From contig JBAZBR010000002.1 in NCBI GenBank assembly GCA_041671325.1, positions 73,978 to 137,977 of the forward strand: a stretch of 64,000 bases of DNA, written 5' to 3'. Source of the stretch: Patescibacteria group bacterium (GTDB lineage Bacteria > Patescibacteriota > Patescibacteriia > PEXW01). This document shows, one piece after another, positions 40,635 through 63,371 of the stretch (the stretch's first letter is position 1; each line of letters opens with the position of its first letter). The notes under the pieces were generated by a model that did no database searches, had not been told where the DNA came from, and saw nothing but the letters and a program-made list of their open reading frames with translations. The translations under genes were made by a program, and so were the position numbers.

Positions 40635-40653
40635 AAATTAATTTTTTAAACAC

Positions 40654-42060
40654 ATGAAAAATCCCAAAGGTTTTCTCCCCATCGCCGCAATTATTATTAT
40701 CATAGTGGTTGCTGCCCTCGCCGCAGGCGGTTCGTATTATTACACCAAGACCCTGAATAAAAACACCAATTCCGTATTAAATACCAACATTGCAGTTGTG
40801 GATGAAAATACTAATGCAGTCGTTAACACAAATACAACAGTTGTAAATGGGAATACAAACGTAACCGTAAATTCAAACGGCAATTTGAATACCAATACTG
40901 TGGTCTTAAATACCAATACCGCCGTGAATTTAAATACCAATACGAGTACCATCAAATATCCTGGGCAAGAATGGCCAGGGTTGACTGATAACTCGGTTTT
41001 ATATCAAAAATACTCGAGCACAGCATCTGACGAGAAGGTCTATACTGTCCAACCTGGGCAGCAACCCAGCGTATATTTTACAATTCCAACGGGTTATTCA
41101 TTGGTTTCAAATGAGAGCGGCCGGCTTATTTGGTTGGAGAAAGATAATTATTTATATATTTATGATATTCAAAAAGGGAGCACCAGAAAAACTTCTTTGC
41201 CCGCTTTAATCGCTGGTGAGGTGCGTTTTGAATCTGCAAGACCCACTGTTTACTCAACAGATGGCGTAGAGGTGATTATTCAGTACAGTCTCTTTGATAA
41301 GAATTCCGCCGCATATAATAGTGAATTTGCGGGGCCTAATCCAATTTCCACTAAACGTTACCGTTATAATATTACTACCAACACCTATACCCCTGGAGAA
41401 AACATGAGCGGGATATTTTATTCTTTATGGGATCGTAAATTAAATATTGGCTATAACCATTTAGCCGGTGAAGGGGTTGGTTCCAAGGCCCCTATCGAAA
41501 AGACTTTCTTTGATACCGGAAACACGGAAGACTCTGCGGATTATGGGAATAATTCTACTCCTGCTTTTTCACAAGATGGAAAGTGGGTTGCCGTACCTGA
41601 ACCATCTAAGGCGCCACTGAAAATATATATATTTTCTCTCCCAGATATAAAAAATCCGGTTAAAACCCTCACCTTACCTACCGTGAAAGATACGCCGCCA
41701 GTCACAAATACCTTAGGGTATATTTACGACTTCGAATGGACAACGGATGATCAAAATTTAATCCTTTCATTTAACCACTCTATTTTCGTAATCAATGTGC
41801 AAACAGAAAAAGCCACAAAGGTTTTCGATAATACCCAAAATGATTCAAGTTATACTGGATGGAGTTATTATCCAGAGATATCCGGATCAAATAGGTATAT
41901 TTATTTTGTTGATTACAGCAATTCTAATCCAGCAACCCTCAAACCAGAAAATAACATCGATGAATTAAAGGCGTATGACATCACAACCGGGAAAACTACA
42001 ATTCTATTAAAAACAACTGGAGAAACAAATATTCAATTAATAGGATTTGATAATTTCTAG
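40654..42060 (+). CDS. Paralog 1 of membrane-anchored surface protein family (conserved N-terminal TM + N/T-rich linker, divergent C-terminus)
   Basis: MKNPKGFLPIAAIIIIIVVAALAAGGSYYYTK + NTN repeats shared with 42097 and 43392 genes. Confidence 0.75.
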   Translation: MKNPKGFLPIAAIIIIIVVAALAAGGSYYYTKTLNKNTNSVLNTNIAVVDENTNAVVNTNTTVVNGNTNVTVNSNGNLNTNTVVLNTNTAVNLNTNTSTIKYPGQEWPGLTDNSVLYQKYSSTASDEKVYTVQPGQQPSVYFTIPTGYSLVSNESGRLIWLEKDNYLYIYDIQKGSTRKTSLPALIAGEVRFESARPTVYSTDGVEVIIQYSLFDKNSAAYNSEFAGPNPISTKRYRYNITTNTYTPGENMSGIFYSLWDRKLNIGYNHLAGEGVGSKAPIEKTFFDTGNTEDSADYGNNSTPAFSQDGKWVAVPEPSKAPLKIYIFSLPDIKNPVKTLTLPTVKDTPPVTNTLGYIYDFEWTTDDQNLILSFNHSIFVINVQTEKATKVFDNTQNDSSYTGWSYYPEISGSNRYIYFVDYSNSNPATLKPENNIDELKAYDITTGKTTILLKTTGETNIQLIGFDNF

Positions 42061-42096
42061 TAAAATTTTATTAAGCAAATTTTTAAAATTATAATT

Positions 42097-43287
42097 ATGA
42101 AAAATCCCACAGGTTTTCTCCCCATCGCCGCTATTATAATAATCGTAGTAGTTGCCGCTGTTGTGGCAGGCGGTTCGTATTATTACACCAAATCCTTAAA
42201 TAAAAACACGAATACGGTTGTAAATACAAATGTTGCGATGGTGAATGAAAATACTAATGCGGTTGTTAATACAAACACAACAGTTGTAAATGGGAATACA
42301 AACGTAACCGTAAATTCAAACGGCAATTTGAATACCAATACAGTAATCGTTAACTCAAATACAAATACCGTGGTTAATTCAAATACTAATTCTGATGCAA
42401 CCGCTGGGTGGAAGACGTATACAAATGCAAAACAGGGTTACTCCGTGAAGTATCCAAGTAATTGGGTTACGCAGGTTCAAAACACAAATGGTGGTGAGGT
42501 AGCAAATGGCAATATAACAACCTTTTGGAGTAAGCCAAACTACAAAGATCTTATACCAGAAGGTACTGAGTGGGTACCAACAGATACACTTTATTATTTT
42601 CGTGTCCATTACCAAGACGAAAGTAGTGCAGCAAATGCGGTAGATCCGAACACCAAGAAACTCTCTAGTGAAGCAATAACCGTTGGTGGGATCTCTGGTT
42701 TAAAAGAGGCATATCAGGGTGCGTATGGAAAATGGACGGTTGTTTATGTAACCAAAAATGGCATAAAGTATGGTTTATATTTACCAGACAAAACCGCCGA
42801 ACAACAAGCACATGCATCAACCATCCTTTCCACCTTCACCTTCCTCGACCAAACCGTCGGGTGGAAGACGTATACGAATACAGAATATGGTTTTTCATTT
42901 AAGTACCCTGCTTCTTGGAAAGAGACAGATTACACCGCTTCGGCTGATTCTCCACTGAACAGCGATGGTGTGAAATTTGAGGATTCAGCTGGGAAAGCTG
43001 GTTCGTTTTACTGGATGCAGGGCGGATATGTACCAACCCAAGACGGTCAGTGGGATTCGACGACAACATCATTGACGGTTGGTGGTCGAACAGCTTCACA
43101 AGTCAGAATGACACCTAAAGCCGGTCAACAGTGGGCAGGTGGAGAACCAAAGCCTCGTGCGGTGGTGAGTCTAACTAGTAATCCGACAACTTGGGGGAGT
43201 AATGCAAGTATGGGTTTAGTGCAAGGCTCTGAAAAGTCTTGGGTAACAGTAGATACTATTTTGTCCACCTTCACTTTTACGAAATAA
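42097..43287 (+). CDS. Paralog 2; C-terminal region has two WKTYTN-x-YGFS-x-KYP-x-W repeats
   Basis: N-terminal ~88 aa near-identical to paralogs; ILSTFTF C-terminal motif. Confidence 0.75.
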   Translation: MKNPTGFLPIAAIIIIVVVAAVVAGGSYYYTKSLNKNTNTVVNTNVAMVNENTNAVVNTNTTVVNGNTNVTVNSNGNLNTNTVIVNSNTNTVVNSNTNSDATAGWKTYTNAKQGYSVKYPSNWVTQVQNTNGGEVANGNITTFWSKPNYKDLIPEGTEWVPTDTLYYFRVHYQDESSAANAVDPNTKKLSSEAITVGGISGLKEAYQGAYGKWTVVYVTKNGIKYGLYLPDKTAEQQAHASTILSTFTFLDQTVGWKTYTNTEYGFSFKYPASWKETDYTASADSPLNSDGVKFEDSAGKAGSFYWMQGGYVPTQDGQWDSTTTSLTVGGRTASQVRMTPKAGQQWAGGEPKPRAVVSLTSNPTTWGSNASMGLVQGSEKSWVTVDTILSTFTFTK

Positions 43288-43294
43288 ATTTTTA

Positions 43295-43351
43295 ATGAGC
43301 CGTATTTTAGTCAAAGACGCAACAAAAAGAATTAACGAACCAATCTTGTAA
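43295..43351 (+). pseudogene. Duplicated remnant of the aspS 5' end (MSRILVKDATKRINEPIL*)
   Basis: ~75% nt identity to aspS start (44487: MKRILVKDTVNKINEPVLL). Confidence 0.6.
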
Positions 43352-43391
43352 ATTGGATGACAAAATTTTAGTTAAATTAATATTAAAGAAT

Positions 43392-44477
43392 ATGAAAAAC
43401 CCCAAAGGTTTTCTCCCCATCGCCGCAATTATTATAATCATAGTGGTTGCTGCCCTCGCCGCAGGCGGTTCTTACTATTACACAAAGACCCTGAATAAAA
43501 ACACTAATACCGTGTTAAATACCAATATTGCGGTGGTGAATGAAAATACTAATGCGGTTGTTAATACAAATACAACAGTTGTAAATGGAAATACAAACGT
43601 AACCATGAATTCAAACGGCAATTTGAATACCAATACTGTGGTCGTCAACTCAAACACTAATGTCGTGGTTAATTCAAATACAAATTCTGATGTAACCGCT
43701 GGGTGGAAGACATATACAAGCACAAAATATGGTTTTTCTCTGAAATATCCTCTAACCATGCGTGTTTTAGAGGTAAACGAAACGAGTGGAATAATCCTTA
43801 GGGTAGGTGTTGAGGGGTCGGCAAATGGGGATAATGTTTTGGTTTATAATAAAAGTTCAAATGCTGGAATTCCTTATAGCACAGTTAAATCAGAAAGTGG
43901 TAAGTCTTTCGTTATTTCTCATGTTGGCGTTGAGGCCGATCAAATTCTTTCCACCTTTGTTTTCCTCGATCAAACCGCTGGGTGGAAGACGTATACAAAT
44001 TCTGAATATGGTTGGACTATGAAATATCCGAATGATTGGACGGTCAATAATTCTTATCAGACAACAGATCCGAATGACATTTTTGAAACCCCGATTCGCA
44101 CAACGACTTTCACAAATCCCAACAAGTATTACAGGTTGCTTGTCGGGATAAAAAAGAAAACCGATTCCGGTAGTATTGTCCCACGGACTGGGATTGGAGC
44201 GGGAGAATTTATAAAAGGCGATACAGTTTTAATTGGTAGCACTTCAATGACTTTATGGAATTTAAATTATAATAATTTGACTTCTGAGATTTTTAATTAC
44301 AATCCAAGTACAAATTCCAATTTTGAAATTAGCAATTTTCAATTTATTGCATATTTCGATTGTGGTACAGCAGCAACCATAGAAACAATAAAGCGTTGCG
44401 ATCAAACAAATTTATCAGTAATACCAGAATATAAAACTTTTAAACTTATTCTTGGTTCATTAGTATTGCCTAATTAA
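43392..44477 (+). CDS. Paralog 3; two WKTYT-x-YG-x-KYP repeats
   Basis: Start at MKNPKGF (the track ORF begins 39 nt upstream). Confidence 0.75.
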   Translation: MKNPKGFLPIAAIIIIIVVAALAAGGSYYYTKTLNKNTNTVLNTNIAVVNENTNAVVNTNTTVVNGNTNVTMNSNGNLNTNTVVVNSNTNVVVNSNTNSDVTAGWKTYTSTKYGFSLKYPLTMRVLEVNETSGIILRVGVEGSANGDNVLVYNKSSNAGIPYSTVKSESGKSFVISHVGVEADQILSTFVFLDQTAGWKTYTNSEYGWTMKYPNDWTVNNSYQTTDPNDIFETPIRTTTFTNPNKYYRLLVGIKKKTDSGSIVPRTGIGAGEFIKGDTVLIGSTSMTLWNLNYNNLTSEIFNYNPSTNSNFEISNFQFIAYFDCGTAATIETIKRCDQTNLSVIPEYKTFKLILGSLVLPN

Positions 44478-44486
44478 AAACGTTAA

Positions 44487-45878
44487 ATGAAACGAATTCT
44501 CGTAAAAGACACCGTCAATAAAATCAATGAACCAGTCTTGTTAAAAGGCTGGGTGCATAATCATCGGCGTTTGGGCAAGATGGTCTTTGTGGATTTGCGG
44601 GATCGTTCTGGGATTATCCAAGTTTTGTTTATGGATAAAATGGTGGAAAAGGCCAATCAGATTCGGCCAGAGTGGGTGGTAGAAATTACAGGAAAGGTGG
44701 TGGAACGTGGTGGCAAGAATAAAAATCAAAGCTCGCCCACCGGGGGAGTGGAAATCCATGCCACGGATTTGAAAGTCTTATCAGAAGCCTTAACCCCGCC
44801 ATTCCCCGTAAATGATGAAACCAAAGCCCAGGAGACTTCTGAAGATCTGCGCATGAAATATCGTTATGTGGATTTACGCCGACCCAGCATGCGGCAAAAT
44901 TTAGTCTTGCGGGCGAAGGTTAACTATTTCATCAGGAATTTTTTGACGAGCGAGGATTTTTTGGAAATCGAAACTCCTTTCTTGACCAAGGGTACGCCTG
45001 AAGGCGCCAGGGAATATATTGTACCAGCCAGGAATTTTCCAGGTAAATTTTATGTCTTGCCACAAAGCCCGCAACAGTTCAAACAATTATTGATGGTATC
45101 TGGCATTGAAAAATACTTCCAATTGGCCAAATGCTTCCGGGATGAAGACCAAAGAGCTGACCGCCAGCCGGAATTCACCCAGTTGGATTTGGAAATAAGT
45201 TTTACGGATCGGGAAGAAGTTTTGGCTTTAATTGAGAAAATGATCATTAATTTAGTCAAAGAAGTTTGTCCAGAAAAACATATTACCCAAACCCCTTTCC
45301 CCAGGATCACCTATAAAGAGGCCATGGAAAAATATAAAAGCGATAAGCCGGATATTCGAAAAGACAAAAACGAAAAAAATGAATTAGGCTTTGCTTTTAT
45401 TATTGATTTTCCCTTGTTCGAATATTCAGAAGCTGAAAAAAAATTAGTCCCTAGCCATCATCTTTTCACTTCACCTCAAGACCCTGAAGCTTTTTTAAAG
45501 GGCGAGGTTAAACCCGAAAATGCAATATCAAAGCAATATGATCTGGCTTTGAATGGTTTTGAAGTGGCTGGGGGCAGTATTCGGATCCATGATTGGAAAT
45601 TACAGGAAAAGATTTTTGAAATCTTGAAAATCGGCAAGGAAGAAGCGGAAAAACGGTTTGGCCACATGCAAAAAGCCTTCAGTTATGGCGTTCCTCCGCA
45701 TGGCGGCATTGCCATGGGTATGGATAGGTTAGTTGCCATTTTGGCCGGGGAAAGCAATATCCGCGAAATCATGGCTTTTCCCAAAACTAATGACGCCAAA
45801 GATCTGATGATGGAAGCGCCTACCGAATTGCCTAAAAAACAACTGGATGAGGCGCATATCCAGATTAAAAAGAAATAA
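44487..45878 (+). CDS. aspS: Aspartyl-tRNA synthetase (short form lacking GAD insertion)
   Basis: CFRDEDQRADRQPEFTQLDLEISF motif 2; GGSIRIH; 463 aa. Confidence 0.88.
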   Translation: MKRILVKDTVNKINEPVLLKGWVHNHRRLGKMVFVDLRDRSGIIQVLFMDKMVEKANQIRPEWVVEITGKVVERGGKNKNQSSPTGGVEIHATDLKVLSEALTPPFPVNDETKAQETSEDLRMKYRYVDLRRPSMRQNLVLRAKVNYFIRNFLTSEDFLEIETPFLTKGTPEGAREYIVPARNFPGKFYVLPQSPQQFKQLLMVSGIEKYFQLAKCFRDEDQRADRQPEFTQLDLEISFTDREEVLALIEKMIINLVKEVCPEKHITQTPFPRITYKEAMEKYKSDKPDIRKDKNEKNELGFAFIIDFPLFEYSEAEKKLVPSHHLFTSPQDPEAFLKGEVKPENAISKQYDLALNGFEVAGGSIRIHDWKLQEKIFEILKIGKEEAEKRFGHMQKAFSYGVPPHGGIAMGMDRLVAILAGESNIREIMAFPKTNDAKDLMMEAPTELPKKQLDEAHIQIKKK

Positions 45879-45879
45879 G

Positions 45880-46170
45880 ATGCTTTCCCCTTTGCAAAAA
45901 TTCATAATTAAAGAATGCCAAGGCGTGAAAGTCACCAAAAGAGTTTTATTTAAGAAGTTTTATACCAAATCCGCCAAAGTTCCCAATGCCGACGACCAGC
46001 AAAATGCTATTACTAAATCCTTGGAGCGGATTATTGATAAGGGTTTGATGATCGGTTATGGCCGAAGGACCCCGAAAAAATGGTATATTGAAGGGGTAAA
46101 ACTCACGCCCAAAGGCAGGAAAATTGTTAAAACCTTGCTTGGCAAACAGCAAAAATTCCCTTTTAAATAA
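45880..46170 (+). CDS. Small basic hypothetical protein (96 aa)
   Basis: ATG 2 nt after aspS stop; Lys/Arg-rich. Confidence 0.5.
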   Translation: MLSPLQKFIIKECQGVKVTKRVLFKKFYTKSAKVPNADDQQNAITKSLERIIDKGLMIGYGRRTPKKWYIEGVKLTPKGRKIVKTLLGKQQKFPFK

Positions 46171-46193
46171 TTAATTATTTTTTATTAAACCCT

Positions 46194-48074
46194 ATGTTAA
46201 AAAAACCGTTTAAAGCAATTGTCGCCCTTTTTTCGGTTTTGGTTTTGGTATTGCCCATGGTGACTAAAGCCGATGGCATGATGGTAGTCCCGCCAAATTA
46301 CTGGATGCGGGAAGACACCCAAAAAGCCGTGGTTTTTTATGATAAAGGTGTTGAGTCTTTGATCCTTTCCATAACCTTCCAGGGCAATGCCAATGACTTT
46401 GGTTGGATTGTACCAACCCCAACCAAGCCAACGGTAACCAAAGGTTCGGATGAAATATTTACCAATTTACAAAAATTAACCAGCACACGTTCAGATTATC
46501 CTGTGTCTGCTTTTGATTTAGGCTTTAGTGGCAGTGAAAAACAAACCAGCGGCGTATCGGTTATTGAAACCAAACAAGTTGATTATTATGATGTGACAAT
46601 TTTAACCGCTACAGATAAAGACGCCTTAACCAAATGGTTTGCGGATAACAAGTATAATTACCCGGAATCTGCCTCTTATATTTTAAACACTTATATCCAG
46701 AATAACTGGTATTTTGTGGCCATGAAGATCAATCCGCAGAGTTTGGAATGGAGCAATGTTACCAGCAGTTTACGGACTGGCCATGCCACGCCCGTGGTCA
46801 TGCAGTTTGCCACTGAAAATATAGTTTATCCTTTAAAAATTTCCACGGTTGTCAGCCAGGCGAATACCAATACTAATGCAAACGCCAACAGCAACACTAA
46901 TACCCCGGTAATTGTTTATGATGCCTCAAATTTCACTTTTGGGCCTGGGAAATTTGGCAAGGCTATAAATATTTCAGGCAGTAAGAATTTATCATATACT
47001 GCTGGAACTGAATTTCCTTATAATAGCGGGACGATTGAAGCCCAAATCAATATCCAGCCCTGGGAAAGCGGAGGTTACCGAAATATTTTGTCAGTCGGGG
47101 ATAGCAAGGGTTCAAATGTTTTTCAATTACGTTTGGCTAAAGCCTATTCTTCTGATACTACAGCAAATCCAGAAGAAACCATTCAGTTTGTTTGGTATAA
47201 AAGTACTGGAAGTAGCTTGATTTGGCGGACTACAGCGTCAACCCCTGTTACGCCAAACACTTGGCATCATGTGGCGGTCACCTGGACAAGCGGCCAAAAA
47301 CCCCAGATTTATTTAGATGGGGTGGCTATGGCAACTAGCGCTGCTTATAATGCAACCACCTGGTTAGGGCAAAGCATCAGCAATGGTTCATTCCAGGTAA
47401 TTGGCAGCCGTTTGGGCAAGTATGAATATTTAAACGGTTATCTAGATGAATACATAGTCCGAAACCAAGCGATAACCGCTACTGAAATTGCAGAAGATGC
47501 CAAGACAGTTATGCCGACTAACCCGACAGTCTCGGCGAAATATGACTCTAACGTGGTCTATTACGCGAATTTTGATGACAATATCAAACTGGAAGATGCC
47601 GCTGGTGTTGAATACAGCCAAAAAGCCGTAGTTATCGTCCAACCAAAGACAATCACCCTTCCTGATTATTATTCAAAATCCCAATACATAACCCTTTATG
47701 TGATTGCTAATGAGCGCAAGGATGCTACGGGTTTTTCCACGACTTATGCCAATTGGTTCAGCAAAAAATCTTTAGAAGATTTAGCTTTTTCTTCAACAGG
47801 TTCGCCCTTACTGGCCGTGAGTGGTAAAAAAATGTTTGTGACAGTCATGAACCGGACAATATCCTCTGGTCAGAACTTGGATGATGTTTTTTTCCGGACG
47901 GCCAGTAGCCAAAGCCTTTTGGGTACTGCTCCAGATTATACGGAAAATGGGACTTTAGCTTTTTGGATATTTTTGGGTGCGGTTTCATTAATTTCAATTG
48001 TTTTAATCTTAATTTTGATTTTGTGGAACCGTCGAACCGTAGCGCCACCAACCAGCCCCCTACCAAAGCTTTAA
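46194..48074 (+). CDS. Secreted/membrane-anchored protein: DUF2330-like N-terminal domain with embedded LamG/concanavalin-like domain, C-terminal TM
   Basis: Signal peptide; VVPP...DFGWIVPTP (DUF2330 signature); WHHVAVTW...IYLDGV (LamG-like); C-terminal hydrophobic helix. Confidence 0.65.
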   Translation: MLKKPFKAIVALFSVLVLVLPMVTKADGMMVVPPNYWMREDTQKAVVFYDKGVESLILSITFQGNANDFGWIVPTPTKPTVTKGSDEIFTNLQKLTSTRSDYPVSAFDLGFSGSEKQTSGVSVIETKQVDYYDVTILTATDKDALTKWFADNKYNYPESASYILNTYIQNNWYFVAMKINPQSLEWSNVTSSLRTGHATPVVMQFATENIVYPLKISTVVSQANTNTNANANSNTNTPVIVYDASNFTFGPGKFGKAINISGSKNLSYTAGTEFPYNSGTIEAQINIQPWESGGYRNILSVGDSKGSNVFQLRLAKAYSSDTTANPEETIQFVWYKSTGSSLIWRTTASTPVTPNTWHHVAVTWTSGQKPQIYLDGVAMATSAAYNATTWLGQSISNGSFQVIGSRLGKYEYLNGYLDEYIVRNQAITATEIAEDAKTVMPTNPTVSAKYDSNVVYYANFDDNIKLEDAAGVEYSQKAVVIVQPKTITLPDYYSKSQYITLYVIANERKDATGFSTTYANWFSKKSLEDLAFSSTGSPLLAVSGKKMFVTVMNRTISSGQNLDDVFFRTASSQSLLGTAPDYTENGTLAFWIFLGAVSLISIVLILILILWNRRTVAPPTSPLPKL

Positions 48075-55668: not shown

Positions 55669-55790
55669 GATTACTCTCCTTTGTATTGTTAAAACAGCAC
55701 CTTGTTTATTTTCGATGAAAATCTAAATAGACAGCATAGATTATTACAGATTAGTATAATTGTCAAGATAACAGGGTTTGCGTTACGAAC

Positions 55791-55818
55791 TTTACAAAAG
55801 TTTCATATTATGATAAGT
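55791..55818 (+). promoter_or_regulatory. Putative cspA promoter TTTACA-N16-ATAAGT (ATTATGATAAGTT motif), long 5' UTR with TTGTACA...TGTACAA palindrome
   Basis: Shared extended -10 string; ~100-nt leader typical of cold-shock genes. Confidence 0.45.
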
Positions 55819-55923
55819 TTCTTTTGTACAGAGGTAAACTCATGTACAAATATAGATCTAAAAAATATAGTCGAATTTTTTACAGATGCTATATACAATT
55901 AGATCAATTTCACAAATTCTTAT

Positions 55924-56169: not shown

Positions 56170-56189
56170 GTTAAGTTTTTTCTATTAAG

Positions 56190-56330
56190 ATATCCAGCGC
56201 AAACGAGGAGCGCATCCCGAGTTTGCCGAGGGAGAGCACGCGTTTGCGCTGAAAAGCGAGGCTTCGCACGAAGAGCGGAGTTTTTCGTGTTTACGCGAAA
56301 ACGTAGCTCGAAGTGCGAAACGAGCTGGTA
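56190..56330. repeat. GC-rich structured element related to 35640-35786 (9-bp perfect stem GCGCAAACG/CGTTTGCGC plus further hairpins)
   Basis: Shared sequence blocks and the same stem position with compensatory changes relative to element at 35658-35710. Confidence 0.5.
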
Positions 56331-56472
56331 GCCCACTCCGGTCTTGGAACAAGACTCTAAGGGTATTGTAAGGCTTTCTCGGGCTACTTTAGATAGATTT
56401 AAGTCTCTCGGTCGGGGCTTTTTTTTAAGAATGAGACAAATGAGACACTACAAACCAGATTTGGTACCTGTC

Positions 56473-57112: not shown

Positions 57113-57601
57113 CTACGGGCAGCTACCCTGCCAAGGCGAGGGTTCGCCTACGCTGTTGAACTGGAGACAACCCAGGTGCGTCGATCCACTGATACATTTC
57201 GACGGCCAGGTATGCGATTGAATACCCACAAAATTGTTCCATACATTTGCGATGTATCCGCAACCGGCAGGCAGTCCGCTAATGGAGACATATCTGTACC
57301 CGCCAGGCAAGGTCATGGTAGTGCTCTGCCACCAGACATAGCCATTCTGCTGAACCTGGAAGGTCCAGTAGCCCAGGTTGGACGGACCCCGGACCGAAAA
57401 AGTTGCGGTCGCGGTAGAAAGCGCCATATTCGGTGATCCCTTTTCGTCGCCAGTAATGGTCACAACGAGCGTATCGCCCTTCACCGCCGTTGTATACGAC
57501 GAAGTCGGATTGGACTGCTGGTCAGCATTCTCGGAACAGCCGATGAAGGCGAGAACCAAGAAAAGCGACAGCAAGGTGAGAAGAGTTTTCTTCAAAGTCA
57601 C
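57113..57601 (-). CDS. Putative lipoprotein (signal peptide + lipobox FIGC)
   Basis: MTLKKTLLTLLSLFLVLAFIGC; locally GC-enriched. Confidence 0.65.
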   Translation of the reverse strand: MTLKKTLLTLLSLFLVLAFIGCSENADQQSNPTSSYTTAVKGDTLVVTITGDEKGSPNMALSTATATFSVRGPSNLGYWTFQVQQNGYVWWQSTTMTLPGGYRYVSISGLPAGCGYIANVWNNFVGIQSHTWPSKCISGSTHLGCLQFNSVGEPSPWQGSCP

Positions 57602-58210
57602 TTTGTGACTCCTTTTTTGAGGTTTTAGATTAACAACTGTCTAAAAAGGTTACTTATCGATAAGACCCCCTTTCATTTTGAAGGAACAATAATACCCAAT
57701 TGGTAAATTGGGGCAAAAAACAATGAGCTTTGGCTCATCTAGCTCAAGTATACATACCTATGAAAATATTGCAAGGCTCAAGAGGTATCCAATGAGTCTG
57801 AAATTAATATTCGAAAGTATGCAAAACATCTTCTCAGAGAGAGAAGCATCACAGAAAAAAGAAAACTACTCGCGAATTTACGGAGTAGGTTGGTGTATCA
57901 GGATAAGAAAATTATGTTAGTATAAATTAATTTTTTAAACTGGTACCTCAATTACGCCTAGGGATGAATCTTGAGTTCGAACTACACTCTGCTCACAGGC
58001 AAAACTGGAGAATGACAATAAGAGCGTGAATGTAAAACGCGGACTGCGGACTAGGTGCGAAAAAGGTCGCGGCCAAAGAAATCTTTGGCTCGAACCTCGT
58101 TCTGGCTTTCGGGAAAGTCCGCCCTGTTCTAAATTTTCGCCCACAAAGACACTGGTTTGCCATACCCAGCGCCAGAGAAAAAATCGGTCAAATTTCTGAT
58201 TGTCAGATGT

Positions 58211-58288
58211 TGGTACCGCCACCGGGATTTGAACCCGGGTTACCAGGATGAGAACCTGGCGTCCTAGACCGAACTAGACGATAGCGGC
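58211..58288 (-). tRNA. tRNA-Glu (anticodon CTC)
   Basis: Cloverleaf: acceptor GCCGCTA/TGGCGGT (two G-U), anticodon stem CCAGG/CCTGG with loop TTCTCAT, T-arm CCGGG-TTCAAAT-CCCGG, CCA encoded. Confidence 0.75.
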
Positions 58289-58521
58289 ATGGTCTTTAAT
58301 GAGTTTTCTAAGTAATCCTGATTTCTTGATTTGTATTTCCCTTTTTAGAGCTTGGATTTTTAAAGCTAATGTTCAGTTTTGATAATACCATAAGGAATGT
58401 ACGCTTTTGTTGATTTAACTTTTCCTTTATTGTGTTCATTAAAGCGCCTTTGGATATTATCAGTAACGCCAATGTACAATCTGTTAAATTTCGGACTTCT
58501 CAAAATGTAAAGATAAAACAT
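58289..58521 (-). pseudogene. GIY-YIG nuclease (UPF0213-like), frameshifted; intact N-terminal 51 codons (58366..58521) then continuation in another frame abutting tRNA-Glu
   Basis: MFYLYILRSPKFNRLYIGVTDNIQRRFNEHNKG...PYGIIKTE then stop; +2 frame continues ALKREIQIKKSGLLRKLIK matching the family C-terminus. Confidence 0.6.
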
Positions 58522-58773
58522 AGGTTTGAATGATACCCGGCAGAGCCGGGTCCGGCTTTGCCGGAAGAACCAAGTGTCCTAGCCGCTTCAGGCATAGCTT
58601 GATCCGGCACTGCCGGAAGACGATGGCGCCATAAGTTTAAGTTATATTTTGTTTGTATCCATGTCAATTTTTTACCCTATTGACAGATAATTGCTGGGGT
58701 ATTAGTCAAGTGTTATTCTAAGCAACAGTTGGTTTTTTGTTTTAAACATTAGCTTTAGGAAAGGCAGGCCAAA

Positions 58774-58947
58774 ATGTCTGATGGAAAAAAGACAAAAAAG
58801 GCTCCTTCTGAAGCATTTCCGATTCAGTTGCCCGTGGTGGATTTTTCAATCTTGGGTCCGCCCTGCCAAATGTGTGGCGACACTGGGGCTAATGCCTTGA
58901 ATAATGGCGAACCATGTGTCTGTCAAATCGGCAGAAAGAAAGACTGA
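58774..58947 (+). CDS. Small Cys-containing protein (57 aa), not in the ORF track
   Basis: AGGAAAGG RBS; CQMCGD...CVCQIG; followed by terminator. Confidence 0.45.
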   Translation: MSDGKKTKKAPSEAFPIQLPVVDFSILGPPCQMCGDTGANALNNGEPCVCQIGRKKD

Positions 58948-58964: not shown

Positions 58965-58991
58965 GAGCGTTCTGTAAAGGGGCGCTCTTTT
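58965..58991 (+). terminator. Rho-independent terminator
   Basis: GAGCG...CGCTC + TTTT. Confidence 0.55.
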
Positions 58992-58995
58992 CCTC

Positions 58996-59020
58996 AATTA
59001 AAAACTGACCCCCGTGAAAA
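58996..59020 (+). repeat. 25-bp direct repeat copy 1 (AATTAAAAACTGACCCCCGTGAAAA)
   Basis: Identical copy at 60074-60098. Confidence 0.8.
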
Positions 59021-59049
59021 ATCATCGGAATATTTTTATTTAATAGTGC

Positions 59050-59077
59050 TTGACAATAATATTTGATTATGATAAGT
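59050..59077 (+). promoter_or_regulatory. Putative promoter TTGACA-N16-ATAAGT (ATTATGATAAGTT motif)
   Basis: Consensus -35; shared extended -10. Confidence 0.45.
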
Positions 59078-59157
59078 TGCGTGGTCGAGTTTGGGTCTTT
59101 TACAATTTGAAAACATTAACGTAAACATAAACAAAACGCAAAGAAAGCGAGGCAAAG

Positions 59158-60015
59158 ATGCAACTTTTAGGAGGAAATGTCCGTTGGGATAAGGGCGATT
59201 GGCAGGAAAGCGCCGGGAATAGGTCTTTGGACCAGAAAGTCGAAGTCAATGGAGTCATTTGGCGGGTTAAAATCCAGAGTCTTACCGGACGGGGTGGCGT
59301 AGTCGGGTGTACATCCGAATGTTATTATGCCAATGTCGGTACGGACCAGATTTCGGTGGTTATTAAGATGGGAAAAGAGGGCTTTGGCGAGCCGCCTATT
59401 TATACCGTACAGATAGGTTGGAGCAATACGGATAAGCACGAACAAGCCACATACCGCTATTGCTTCAATACTGCCTATGACGAAGCAAACGTCATTGATT
59501 GGGAGATTTTACCAGCCGACAAGCCCGATTTGTTGGAAAAGATTTTCGATATCCAGCAAATACTGTCGGTGTTTGATCACAGCAAGACCTTCGACTATGC
59601 CCTGAAGCATTTGCGGCATAAGCTGGACCACCCCGAGAAATCAACAACCTACATTTTGTTTAGGGACGTTACTATGAGTCCGAACAAAATCACTGGATCA
59701 TTTTTATTGCTGGGTCCCCGGCGTACGCTGCTAGGGTTTGATGGGAGTGAAAAAGGGTTTTTGTATGGCGGATTCCAGCTTTTTAGTCGTTCGGGCGAGG
59801 ATATCTCCTCCAGGAGCGGCAGTCTAAGTTTGTCTCTAAAGGATGGGTATTATGAAATATTTATCCTTAATCCGGCCAATTGTGGTAATAGCACCTGGAT
59901 TAAAGTCTTCAGTGCTGATGACAGCAAAAATCTGGTACCCGAAACCGTAGAAATCCCAGGCGACGTTTCCCAGTTCATCCTGTCCTTGGCATCGCCAGTT
60001 ACGGCTGCTGAATAA
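59158..60015 (+). CDS. Hypothetical protein (285 aa), sole ORF of the direct-repeat-flanked cassette
   Basis: GAGG RBS; no recognizable motifs. Confidence 0.6.
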   Translation: MQLLGGNVRWDKGDWQESAGNRSLDQKVEVNGVIWRVKIQSLTGRGGVVGCTSECYYANVGTDQISVVIKMGKEGFGEPPIYTVQIGWSNTDKHEQATYRYCFNTAYDEANVIDWEILPADKPDLLEKIFDIQQILSVFDHSKTFDYALKHLRHKLDHPEKSTTYILFRDVTMSPNKITGSFLLLGPRRTLLGFDGSEKGFLYGGFQLFSRSGEDISSRSGSLSLSLKDGYYEIFILNPANCGNSTWIKVFSADDSKNLVPETVEIPGDVSQFILSLASPVTAAE

Positions 60016-60023
60016 GCCGACCA

Positions 60024-60074
60024 AAGACCGTTTGGGTAGTGGCATTTGTCCATTGCCAAACGGTCTTTATTTAT
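60024..60074 (+). terminator. Rho-independent terminator (12-bp stem)
   Basis: AAGACCGTTTGG...CCAAACGGTCTT + TATTTAT. Confidence 0.65.
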
Positions 60075-60098
60075 AATTAAAAACTGACCCCCGTGAAA
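60074..60098 (+). repeat. 25-bp direct repeat copy 2
   Basis: Identical to 58996-59020. Confidence 0.8.
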
Positions 60099-60122
60099 AT
60101 TCACAGGGGTGAAGACCTAACA

Positions 60123-60368
60123 TCAATTGAAGTTTTTCATAACTCCATAAATCACGAGGGTCAGTCCGCCGAAAAAGAACAGGGTTTCAATCAATAAGCC
60201 AATGACGGCTAAATGATTTTTGCGATTGCTTCGGCGCCGCCTCTTTTTCTTGGTGGCAAATACAAATAGGACTGCGCCAGTTAAAATCGCATCAAGCCCA
60301 TGTGGAATAAACATAGGTTTAATTCTAATTAAGGCGAAATCTTGGCCTTGGCTTTGACTAAAGCCCAT
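60123..60368 (-). CDS. Small 2-TM membrane protein with KKKRRRRSNRK loop
   Basis: Hydrophobicity; start uncertain (60368 or 60314). Confidence 0.45.
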   Translation of the reverse strand: MGFSQSQGQDFALIRIKPMFIPHGLDAILTGAVLFVFATKKKRRRRSNRKNHLAVIGLLIETLFFFGGLTLVIYGVMKNFN

Positions 60369-63251: not shown

Positions 63252-63371
63252 ACAATCTCCTTACCACATCCGTGGTTGTTTTTTATTTATTTTTTCACTC
63301 TTAAGTTTGTGAAAGTTCGTAAACTTAAGAGTGAAGGGGAGCGAGCAAATATATGCACGTTCCCCCGAAAG

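Follow-up and report, generated by a model that had tools for sequence, protein, structure and literature searches.

A 1,079-bp unit carrying a single orphan gene of 285 amino acids (aa) was inserted into the loop of a neighboring gene's transcription terminator in an uncultured Patescibacteria (candidate phyla radiation, CPR) bacterium, duplicating 25 nucleotides (nt) of the target. The window, meaning the whole stretch of DNA analyzed, comprises 64,000 nt from Patescibacteria group bacterium (PEXW01), assembly GCA_041671325.1, contig JBAZBR010000002.1, positions 73,978-137,977 of the forward strand. Together with the adjoining locus L001, about 70 kb of the host genome were inspected. The target terminator belongs to p81, a small membrane protein gene that ancestrally converged with p57, a gene for a small Cys-rich protein, and the duplication left p81 with an intact terminator. 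The footprint of gene gain in this CPR genome is well resolved, but it is a single one. The orphan gene entered a streamlined genome of very small size as a unit complete with promoter and terminator. Entry between convergent genes disrupts nothing, and the neighbor's terminator is regenerated by the duplication. The features at the insertion site are as follows.

58774-58947, plus strand: p57, small Cys-rich protein gene, 57 aa, ancestrally convergent with p81
58965-58995, plus strand: p57 terminator (T57), stem at 58965-58987 followed by TTTTCCTC; abuts repeat copy 1
58996-59020, plus strand: direct repeat copy 1, 25 nt perfect, extending to 59024 with one mismatch; a half-terminator
59021-60074, plus strand: unique interior of the insert, 1,054 bp, absent in the related contigs L008, L010-L014/L016 and L003
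60075-60099, plus strand: direct repeat copy 2, 25 nt perfect, extending to 60103 with one mismatch; inside the intact p81 terminator
60075-60110, minus strand: intrinsic terminator of p81 (T81), from a terminator scan and folding
60123-60368, minus strand: p81, small membrane protein gene, 81 aa, whose terminator is the insertion target (annotated by NCBI in a 63-aa version)

Direct repeats and the p81 terminator

The window contains exactly two copies of the 25-mer AATTAAAAACTGACCCCCGTGAAAA, both on the plus strand and with 25/25 identity, and the match reaches 29 nt if one mismatch is allowed. The copies are spaced 1,079 bp start to start. An earlier note on this DNA had described a single-gene cassette between perfect 25-bp direct repeats; the identity and the first copy stand as given, whereas the second copy lies at 60075-60099 and not at 60074-60098. 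No further copy with up to three mismatches is present in the 64-kb window, and the count across the ~70 kb of host genome is two.

Copy 2 belongs to a complete terminator. On the minus strand it forms the loop-proximal part, 3' arm and U-tract of T81, which begins 12 nt past the p81 stop codon and reads ACCCCTGTGAA-TTTT-CACGGGGGT, a 10-bp stem (60110-60087), followed by CAGTTTTTAATT. T81 folds at -18.6 kcal/mol (z = -3.3) and has the features of a rho-independent terminator: a GC-rich hairpin and U-tract near the stop codon, with a hairpin present in relatives. Copy 1, read on the same strand, is the 3' arm and U-tract of the p81 terminator lacking the 5' arm, and is predicted to be a non-functional half-terminator; its context folds weakly (-10.7 kcal/mol, z = -1.6). 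It abuts T57 directly. Each copy is preceded by a plus-strand terminator, as the earlier note had observed while overlooking that the repeat itself is half of the minus-strand p81 terminator. The occupied junctions are T57, 25-mer and ATCATCGG at copy 1, and the insert's own terminator (T285), 25-mer and TTCACAGGGG at copy 2.

It is very improbable that the two copies mark no insertion at all and represent a dispersed terminator-associated repeat, a chance match or an assembly artefact. Terminators do recur in this genome: a second version of the lepB terminator exists with 81-89% identity, and one hairpin of 60 nt is present in two copies. Chance is nevertheless excluded by shuffling, as the earlier note had expected: a 25-mer pair arose in 0 of 100 dinucleotide-preserving shuffles. 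The ~70 kb contain just two copies, whose positions bracket precisely the segment that relatives lack. The suggestion that the 25-mer might be a common terminator motif was not borne out either, in that its 21-base core, used for the wider search, found no match in GTDB species representatives (596 Gb) or JGI metagenome contigs. The same arrangement is present in independent assemblies, a k = 141 MEGAHIT contig from ENA and a Logan contig, at 99.99-100% identity, and two NCBI metagenome-assembled genomes (MAGs) list identical proteins. An assembly artefact is excluded since the 25-bp repeat is shorter than the assembler k-mers.

The empty site in related species

Because the 285-aa protein has no relatives, homologue searches were seeded with its neighbors, a 208-aa CPBP-like protein and p81. 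Homologues of p81 were recovered at 85% (L008/L010), 78% (L003) and 40% (L006) identity. The empty-site relatives comprise L003 and the L008 group, made up of L008 and L010-L014/L016 (L010 is the same as L008), which amounts to six distinct contigs from six samples. A further contig, L015, terminates within the p81 hairpin and lies outside this count.

Throughout the L008 group, the p81 (85% aa identity) and p57 homologues converge with 89 bp between their stop codons, compared with 1,175 bp in the window. The order runs from the p81 stop through a single hairpin, the reverse-complemented p57 terminator and the p57 homologue to the tRNA promoter and tRNA-Glu. The 285-aa gene is not present between the p81 and p57 homologues in these contigs. 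The p57 homologue of L010 has the conserved C-terminal half PPCxMCxDTGxNALNNGEPCVCQI and is followed by a terminator homologous to T57; at the position of T81, the same contig has a hairpin of different sequence with several pairing-preserving changes. L003 (p81 at 78% aa identity) likewise has a single hairpin, with tRNA-Glu ~50 bp on and neither p57 nor the 285-aa gene, and the 30-nt core of T81 (CCCCTGTGAATTTTCACGGGGGTCAGTTTT) is identical there.

When the interior and one repeat copy are removed from the window, the remainder aligns colinearly with the L008 group contigs. The insert therefore measures 1,079 bp including one repeat copy, its exact ends being ambiguous within the repeat. Ancestral flanks are retained on both outer sides: the 5' hairpin arm lies beside copy 2 and the p57 terminator beside copy 1, whose outer flank (GAGG...) runs into ancestral sequence common to the relatives. 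An ancestral flank outside each copy is the signature of target duplication, and an orphaned half-terminator can arise only by duplication at an insertion. This comparison shows the insertion of the 1,079-bp unit into the p81 terminator loop with duplication of 25 nt, in line with the insertion that the earlier note had suggested. The search for such sites succeeded in related species, which carry the single terminator copy, and gave none within this species, where 4/4 contigs with its p81 are occupied.

A remnant of the 5' part of tRNA-Glu beside p57 raised the alternative that the p57 block is the inserted DNA, which is less parsimonious. In the sister species this block has a colinear counterpart, from which it has diverged much as p81 has (76-81% versus 79%), and the junction between the 285-aa gene and the half-terminator would still require an illegitimate event of its own.

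The inserted segment

The interior of the insert holds one transcription unit.

59050-59078, plus strand: promoter of the 285-aa gene, TTGACA at 59050-59055, a 17-nt spacer ending in TGA, then TAAGTT
59158-60015, plus strand: 285-aa orphan open reading frame (ORF; NCBI WCT08_03505), with a GAGG ribosome-binding site; the only ORF in the insert
~60023-60068, plus strand: intrinsic terminator of the insert (T285), an outer stem of ~13 bp followed by TTTATTTAT

The promoter combines a perfect -35 element with a weak -10 element (3/6 matches) and a TG one base upstream, and was not called in a consensus promoter scan. It had been described as strong; the TTGACA and the TG-extended -10 are indeed present, and the strength was overstated. 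Its 13-mer ATTATGATAAGTT is also the -10 region of the cold-shock gene (csp) promoter at 55790-55819, which has the same architecture, and the tRNA promoters of the window read TTGACA-N17-TAACTT. This pattern suggests a host -10 consensus of TAAnTT. With the 13-mer in common, the promoter of the 285-aa gene is host-style. At the other end of the unit, T285 folds at -26.5 kcal/mol (z = -5.0), bearing out the terminator proposed within the cassette.

The 285-aa protein is acidic and soluble, with zero transmembrane segments. Searches against Pfam, PHROG, PADLOC, NCBIfam and PDB sequences gave no match, and the protein keeps its description as an orphan with no recognizable domain. A word-indexed search of 5.8 billion protein clusters returned only the protein itself, and the apparent variants in its cluster are merely alternative start-codon calls. 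Exhaustive searching of 1.84 billion representatives with phmmer gave the protein and two repeat proteins, both judged spurious, their scores being sums of ~10 weak 38-aa matches. A single-sequence AlphaFold2 model reached a predicted local distance difference test (pLDDT) score of 36.7 and was unusable for a fold search. Neither a restriction-modification domain nor a methyltransferase was detected in the insert; restriction enzymes are frequently orphan in sequence, so such a gene could have escaped recognition. A foreign origin by composition was considered and rejected, as the gene does not differ from neighboring conserved genes in GC content or codon usage.

Terminator duplications elsewhere in the genome

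A second terminator duplication lies ~8.5 kb from the insert and ~4.5 kb past the window end in the same genome. One 91-aa membrane-protein gene lies between the copies of a 60-nt direct repeat (L001 19369-19428 and 19780-19838; 97% identical, 42 nt perfect), and these copies are the 3' hairpins of two adjacent, unrelated, minus-strand small membrane-protein genes. The long hairpin terminator of lepB (63278-63343; TTCACTCTTAAGTTTGTGAA / TTCGTAAACTTAAGAGTGAA) recurs 3.8 kb away at L001 17942-18008 with 81-89% identity, where it follows an unrelated 68-aa gene. Terminator duplication beside single genes thus appears to be recurrent in this genome.

Two independent terminator duplications (25 nt and 60 nt), each around a single unrelated gene, fall within one 15-kb, orphan-rich island beside tRNA-Glu. 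They could reflect a Patescibacteria mechanism that works without an integrase in cis, in which orphan genes are recruited in a structure-directed manner into or just after terminator hairpins, the terminator is regenerated by duplication and arrays are built up. We regard such a mechanism as speculative and rather improbable. If the pattern recurs, as the second duplication hints, terminator hairpins would be preferred gene entry points in naturally competent Patescibacteria, and insertion with long target duplication would extend beyond restriction-modification genes.

Mobility and possible site-specific integration

No transposase, integrase or other mobility gene is present in the insert, whose sole ORF is the 285-aa orphan, as the earlier note had recognized. 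Terminal inverted repeats are also lacking: the insert ends, ATCATCGGAAT... and ...GGTCTTTATTTAT, are unrelated by inversion. The 20 larger ORFs of the window, all housekeeping genes, include no integrase or transposase, nor was an integrase found in the surrounding 15 kb. In the collections searched, the insert, its protein and the 25-mer have no second copy, and no match indicates phage, plasmid or viral origin; four viral-contig matches to a 17-mer were dismissed as chance, their flanks being unrelated. The boundary sequences contain no integron attC core (GTTRRRY) or R''/L''/L'/R' boxes, and no Rfam family other than tRNA was found in 57.9-60.2 kb. An integron, an insertion sequence (IS), a group II intron and a known RNA were accordingly ruled out by the lack of an attC core, terminal inverted repeats and an Rfam family. 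In the ~70 kb visible, nothing indicates a proliferating element or a cognate recombinase.

Site-specific integration is the main competing explanation, though unlikely. Here the 25-mer would be the core of attL and attR, left when a tyrosine recombinase encoded elsewhere integrated a circular 1,079-bp cassette bearing attP into the terminator hairpin. The attP copy would have restored the 3' end of the p81 unit, as happens at tRNAs, and the cassette would be excisable and mobilized in trans, as the earlier note had envisaged. The perfect direct repeat has an att-like length, and the target is dyad-symmetric, with arms of 8-10 bp around a 4-6-nt center and a central breakpoint, the layout of a tyrosine-recombinase core. 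The identity block stops exactly at the end of the U-tract, and a weak similarity (6/11, p ~0.06) follows just beyond the breakpoint. A tRNA gene lies 0.7 kb away, the locus holds a recombinase remnant and other insertions, and the second terminator duplication, also around a single gene, is ~8.5 kb distant.

Several observations argue against an att site and mobilization in trans, which are left unsupported. The integrase searches of the cassette, the surrounding 15 kb and the 20 window ORFs were negative. The only recombinase trace nearby is a remnant of a large serine recombinase at 58056-58210; such enzymes leave a 2-bp crossover, not a 25-bp repeat. The collections searched yielded no further copy of the cassette, protein or core, and every assembly of the species is occupied. 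The second duplication differs in sequence, in length (60 nt) and in covering the whole hairpin, so one sequence-specific enzyme cannot explain both. With regard to the att-site class, an identical core appears at both junctions; an integrase and recurrence, as far as these were testable, were not found.

Mode of insertion

The reading favored here, with about even confidence, is a one-off insertion accompanied by a long target duplication that is independent of a transposase or integrase. It rests on the lack of a mobility gene, of inverted repeats and of a second copy, together with the host-like promoter and codon usage. The ancestral locus held p57 (plus strand) and p81 (minus strand) in convergent orientation with ~90 bp of back-to-back intrinsic terminators between them. 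Incoming DNA, probably acquired through natural transformation, would have been joined at a break or microhomology in the T81 hairpin loop, by recombination that was either illegitimate or homology-facilitated. The source of the 25-nt repeat could be a filled-in overlap or stagger of ~25 nt, or a related donor's copy of T81 serving as a homologous anchor. The repeat would then be a scar rather than an active recombination site, and the 285-aa gene ordinary cargo. As precedent, genes that lack mobility functions and have long direct repeats on either side, present only once at the empty site, are known chiefly from naturally competent bacteria (PMC2853133). Patescibacteria as a group conserve competence genes, and natural transformation has been demonstrated among them (PMC10633639). 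The 60-nt terminator duplication ~8.5 kb away adds a further case from this genome itself.

One specific form of this one-off insertion, recombination between two haplotypes, is itself unlikely. It would bring a donor segment ordered 285-aa gene, T285, T81 and p81 into a chromosome of the p57 type. Homology at p81 and T81 would serve as the anchor, and the far end would be joined illegitimately in the resident loop, retaining 25 nt of the resident T81. Consistent with this, the left edge of the repeat is the exact end of T81, where the alternative neighbors T57 and T285 start, and the T285/T81 junction resembles two native terminators placed back to back. Even in the relative with 78% p81 identity the T81 core is unchanged, so that the donor and the recipient may have had identical copies. 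The host-like promoter and codon usage of the cassette and the variation of the p81-to-tRNA-Glu interval across all relatives examined also fit, as does natural competence in the phylum (PMC10633639). On the other side, no genome with the donor arrangement was found. Homology-facilitated illegitimate recombination, moreover, usually deletes resident DNA rather than duplicating it.

Several points weigh against a one-off, recombinase-independent insertion. The mechanism is one that we infer, and the data do not separate an illegitimate from a site-specific join. A length of 25 bp is within the typical range of integrase att cores and falls below the 30-bp cut-off by which long target duplications have been defined (PMC2853133). 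The duplicated block begins at the loop and stops exactly where the transcription unit ends, as in elements that restore the 3' end of a target gene, and the 11 nt past the repeat, matching at 6/11 positions, could be a degenerate core-type binding arm. The inspected part of the genome is only ~70 kb. The empty-site relatives are other species (~79% nucleotide identity) and not conspecific strains, and secondary loss in these relatives through recombination between the repeats could still account for their arrangement.

Comparison with known systems

The closest documented precedent, insertion with long target duplication, has been described for restriction-modification genes, where the mechanism is unresolved (Furuta, Abe and Kobayashi 2010, PMC2853133); that paper cites Nobusato et al. 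2000, Gene 259:99. The present locus resembles this class in having direct repeats far longer than transposon duplications, no transposase or integrase, and a repeat that is single-copy at the related empty site and not found elsewhere. It differs in length, at 25 bp (29 with one mismatch) against a threshold of >30 bp and cases of 43-47 bp and longer (PMC2853133). The cargo is an orphan with no recognizable restriction-modification gene, an intrinsic terminator's loop serves as the target, and the host genome is a Patescibacteria MAG.

Islands and satellites that target tRNA genes share with this locus perfect repeats of tens of bp, a central hairpin breakpoint, preservation of the target's 3' end and a tRNA-proximal variable region. 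Unlike in those elements, no integrase was found in or near the insert, no arm-type sites were recognized, no second copy was found, the species shows no empty/occupied polymorphism, and the target is the terminator of a protein gene. Integron gene cassettes are similar in comprising a discrete, single small ORF with a hairpin-forming sequence in a run of orphan genes. Here, in contrast, there is no attC or GTTRRRY, no IntI or attI was found, no tyrosine recombinase is among the scanned window ORFs, and the gene has its own promoter and terminator; the boundaries of integron cassettes share ~7 bp, compared with 25 at this locus.

Minimal mobile elements of Neisseria are varied cassettes that lie between the same conserved flanking genes and are exchanged by transformation. 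The p81-to-tRNA-Glu interval, with content that differs in each relative and a host from a competent phylum, is comparable. The Neisseria elements move by homologous recombination in the flanks with no target duplication, unlike the present insert. Among insertion sequences, IS1397 targets the loops of repetitive extragenic palindromic (REP) elements and Mycoplasma IS1630 duplicates 19-26 bp, as cited in PMC2853133. Hairpin-loop insertion and a duplication in the 19-26-bp range are shared with these, while the insert has no transposase and no terminal inverted repeats and is single-copy. More generally, it is set apart from an IS, transposon or miniature inverted-repeat transposable element (MITE) by the lack of terminal inverted repeats and by a duplication of 25 bp rather than 2-14 bp.

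The variable interval beside tRNA-Glu

The interval between p81 and tRNA-Glu has different content in every relative examined. The two are directly adjacent in L003, only p57 lies between them in the L008 group, and another contig has an 82-aa GIY-YIG gene directly after p81. In the window, the interval holds the insert, p57, a decayed GIY-YIG gene and two tRNA-Glu pieces. The locus appears to be a recombination-prone, tRNA-proximal island, with the following features beyond p57.

58211-58288, minus strand: tRNA-Glu(CUC), a conserved landmark at the far end of the variable interval, ~0.7 kb from the insert
58289-58521, minus strand: GIY-YIG (URI-domain) pseudogene, just upstream of tRNA-Glu
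58537-58549, 58552-58564 and 58604-58616, minus strand: perfect CCGGC-N3-GCCGG hairpins
58056-58210: 3' remnant of a large serine recombinase gene, ~150 bp, in the downstream flank of tRNA-Glu

The intact tRNA-Glu diverges from that of the relatives in the acceptor, D and T arms. Of the native tRNA-Glu, the promoter and the first ~26 nt persist as a remnant beside the p57 promoter (~58612-58690, minus strand). This remnant is broken by 30 nt and followed by the three perfect hairpins, which occur nowhere else in the window or in the other loci retrieved, and no matching tRNA 3' fragment was found left of the locus. The ORF of the GIY-YIG pseudogene ends after 51 aa, and the rest continues in frame across three stop codons. 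The serine recombinase gene is full-length in L003 (3492-4415; Recombinase and Zn_ribbon_recom domains), its frame running antisense into the tRNA.

A 162-aa orphan gene (57113-57601, minus strand) sits between the recombinase remnant and another orphan. It has a lipoprotein signal (LAFIGC) and a GC content of 54%, with 64% at third codon positions (GC3), compared with 42% GC for the genome, and may be part of a decayed integrated element. On the other side of p81, the L015 contig, from one sister-species sample and ending at 1492, carries a 325-aa HTH_38-domain protein (105-1082) upstream of p81 where the 208-aa gene would otherwise lie. This type of domain occurs in IS30-type transposases.

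Additional features

An element of ~90 nt is present three times on the minus strand outside the window (L001 19095-19200, 20060-20165 and 20225-20330), with at least two of the three copies upstream of a small membrane-protein gene. Within it are a hairpin, GGCTTCGGCC, and a stretch, CTCACCTCCAGAT, that is complementary to the ribosome-binding site. Rfam contains no match to this element, which may act as a cis-regulatory leader.

A stretch of ~250 nt (56170-56430, plus strand) that is rich in GC and poor in ORFs lies downstream of the cold-shock gene and ends in a terminator. Its fold is more stable than that of shuffled sequences (-94.5 kcal/mol, z = -3.2). It has no match in Rfam and may represent an uncharacterized non-coding RNA.

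Farther upstream, a cluster of large paralogous genes at 40653-48074 contains internal 300-nt units (80-87% identity) and Asn/Thr-rich AATACNAAT repeats; these genes probably encode variable surface proteins.

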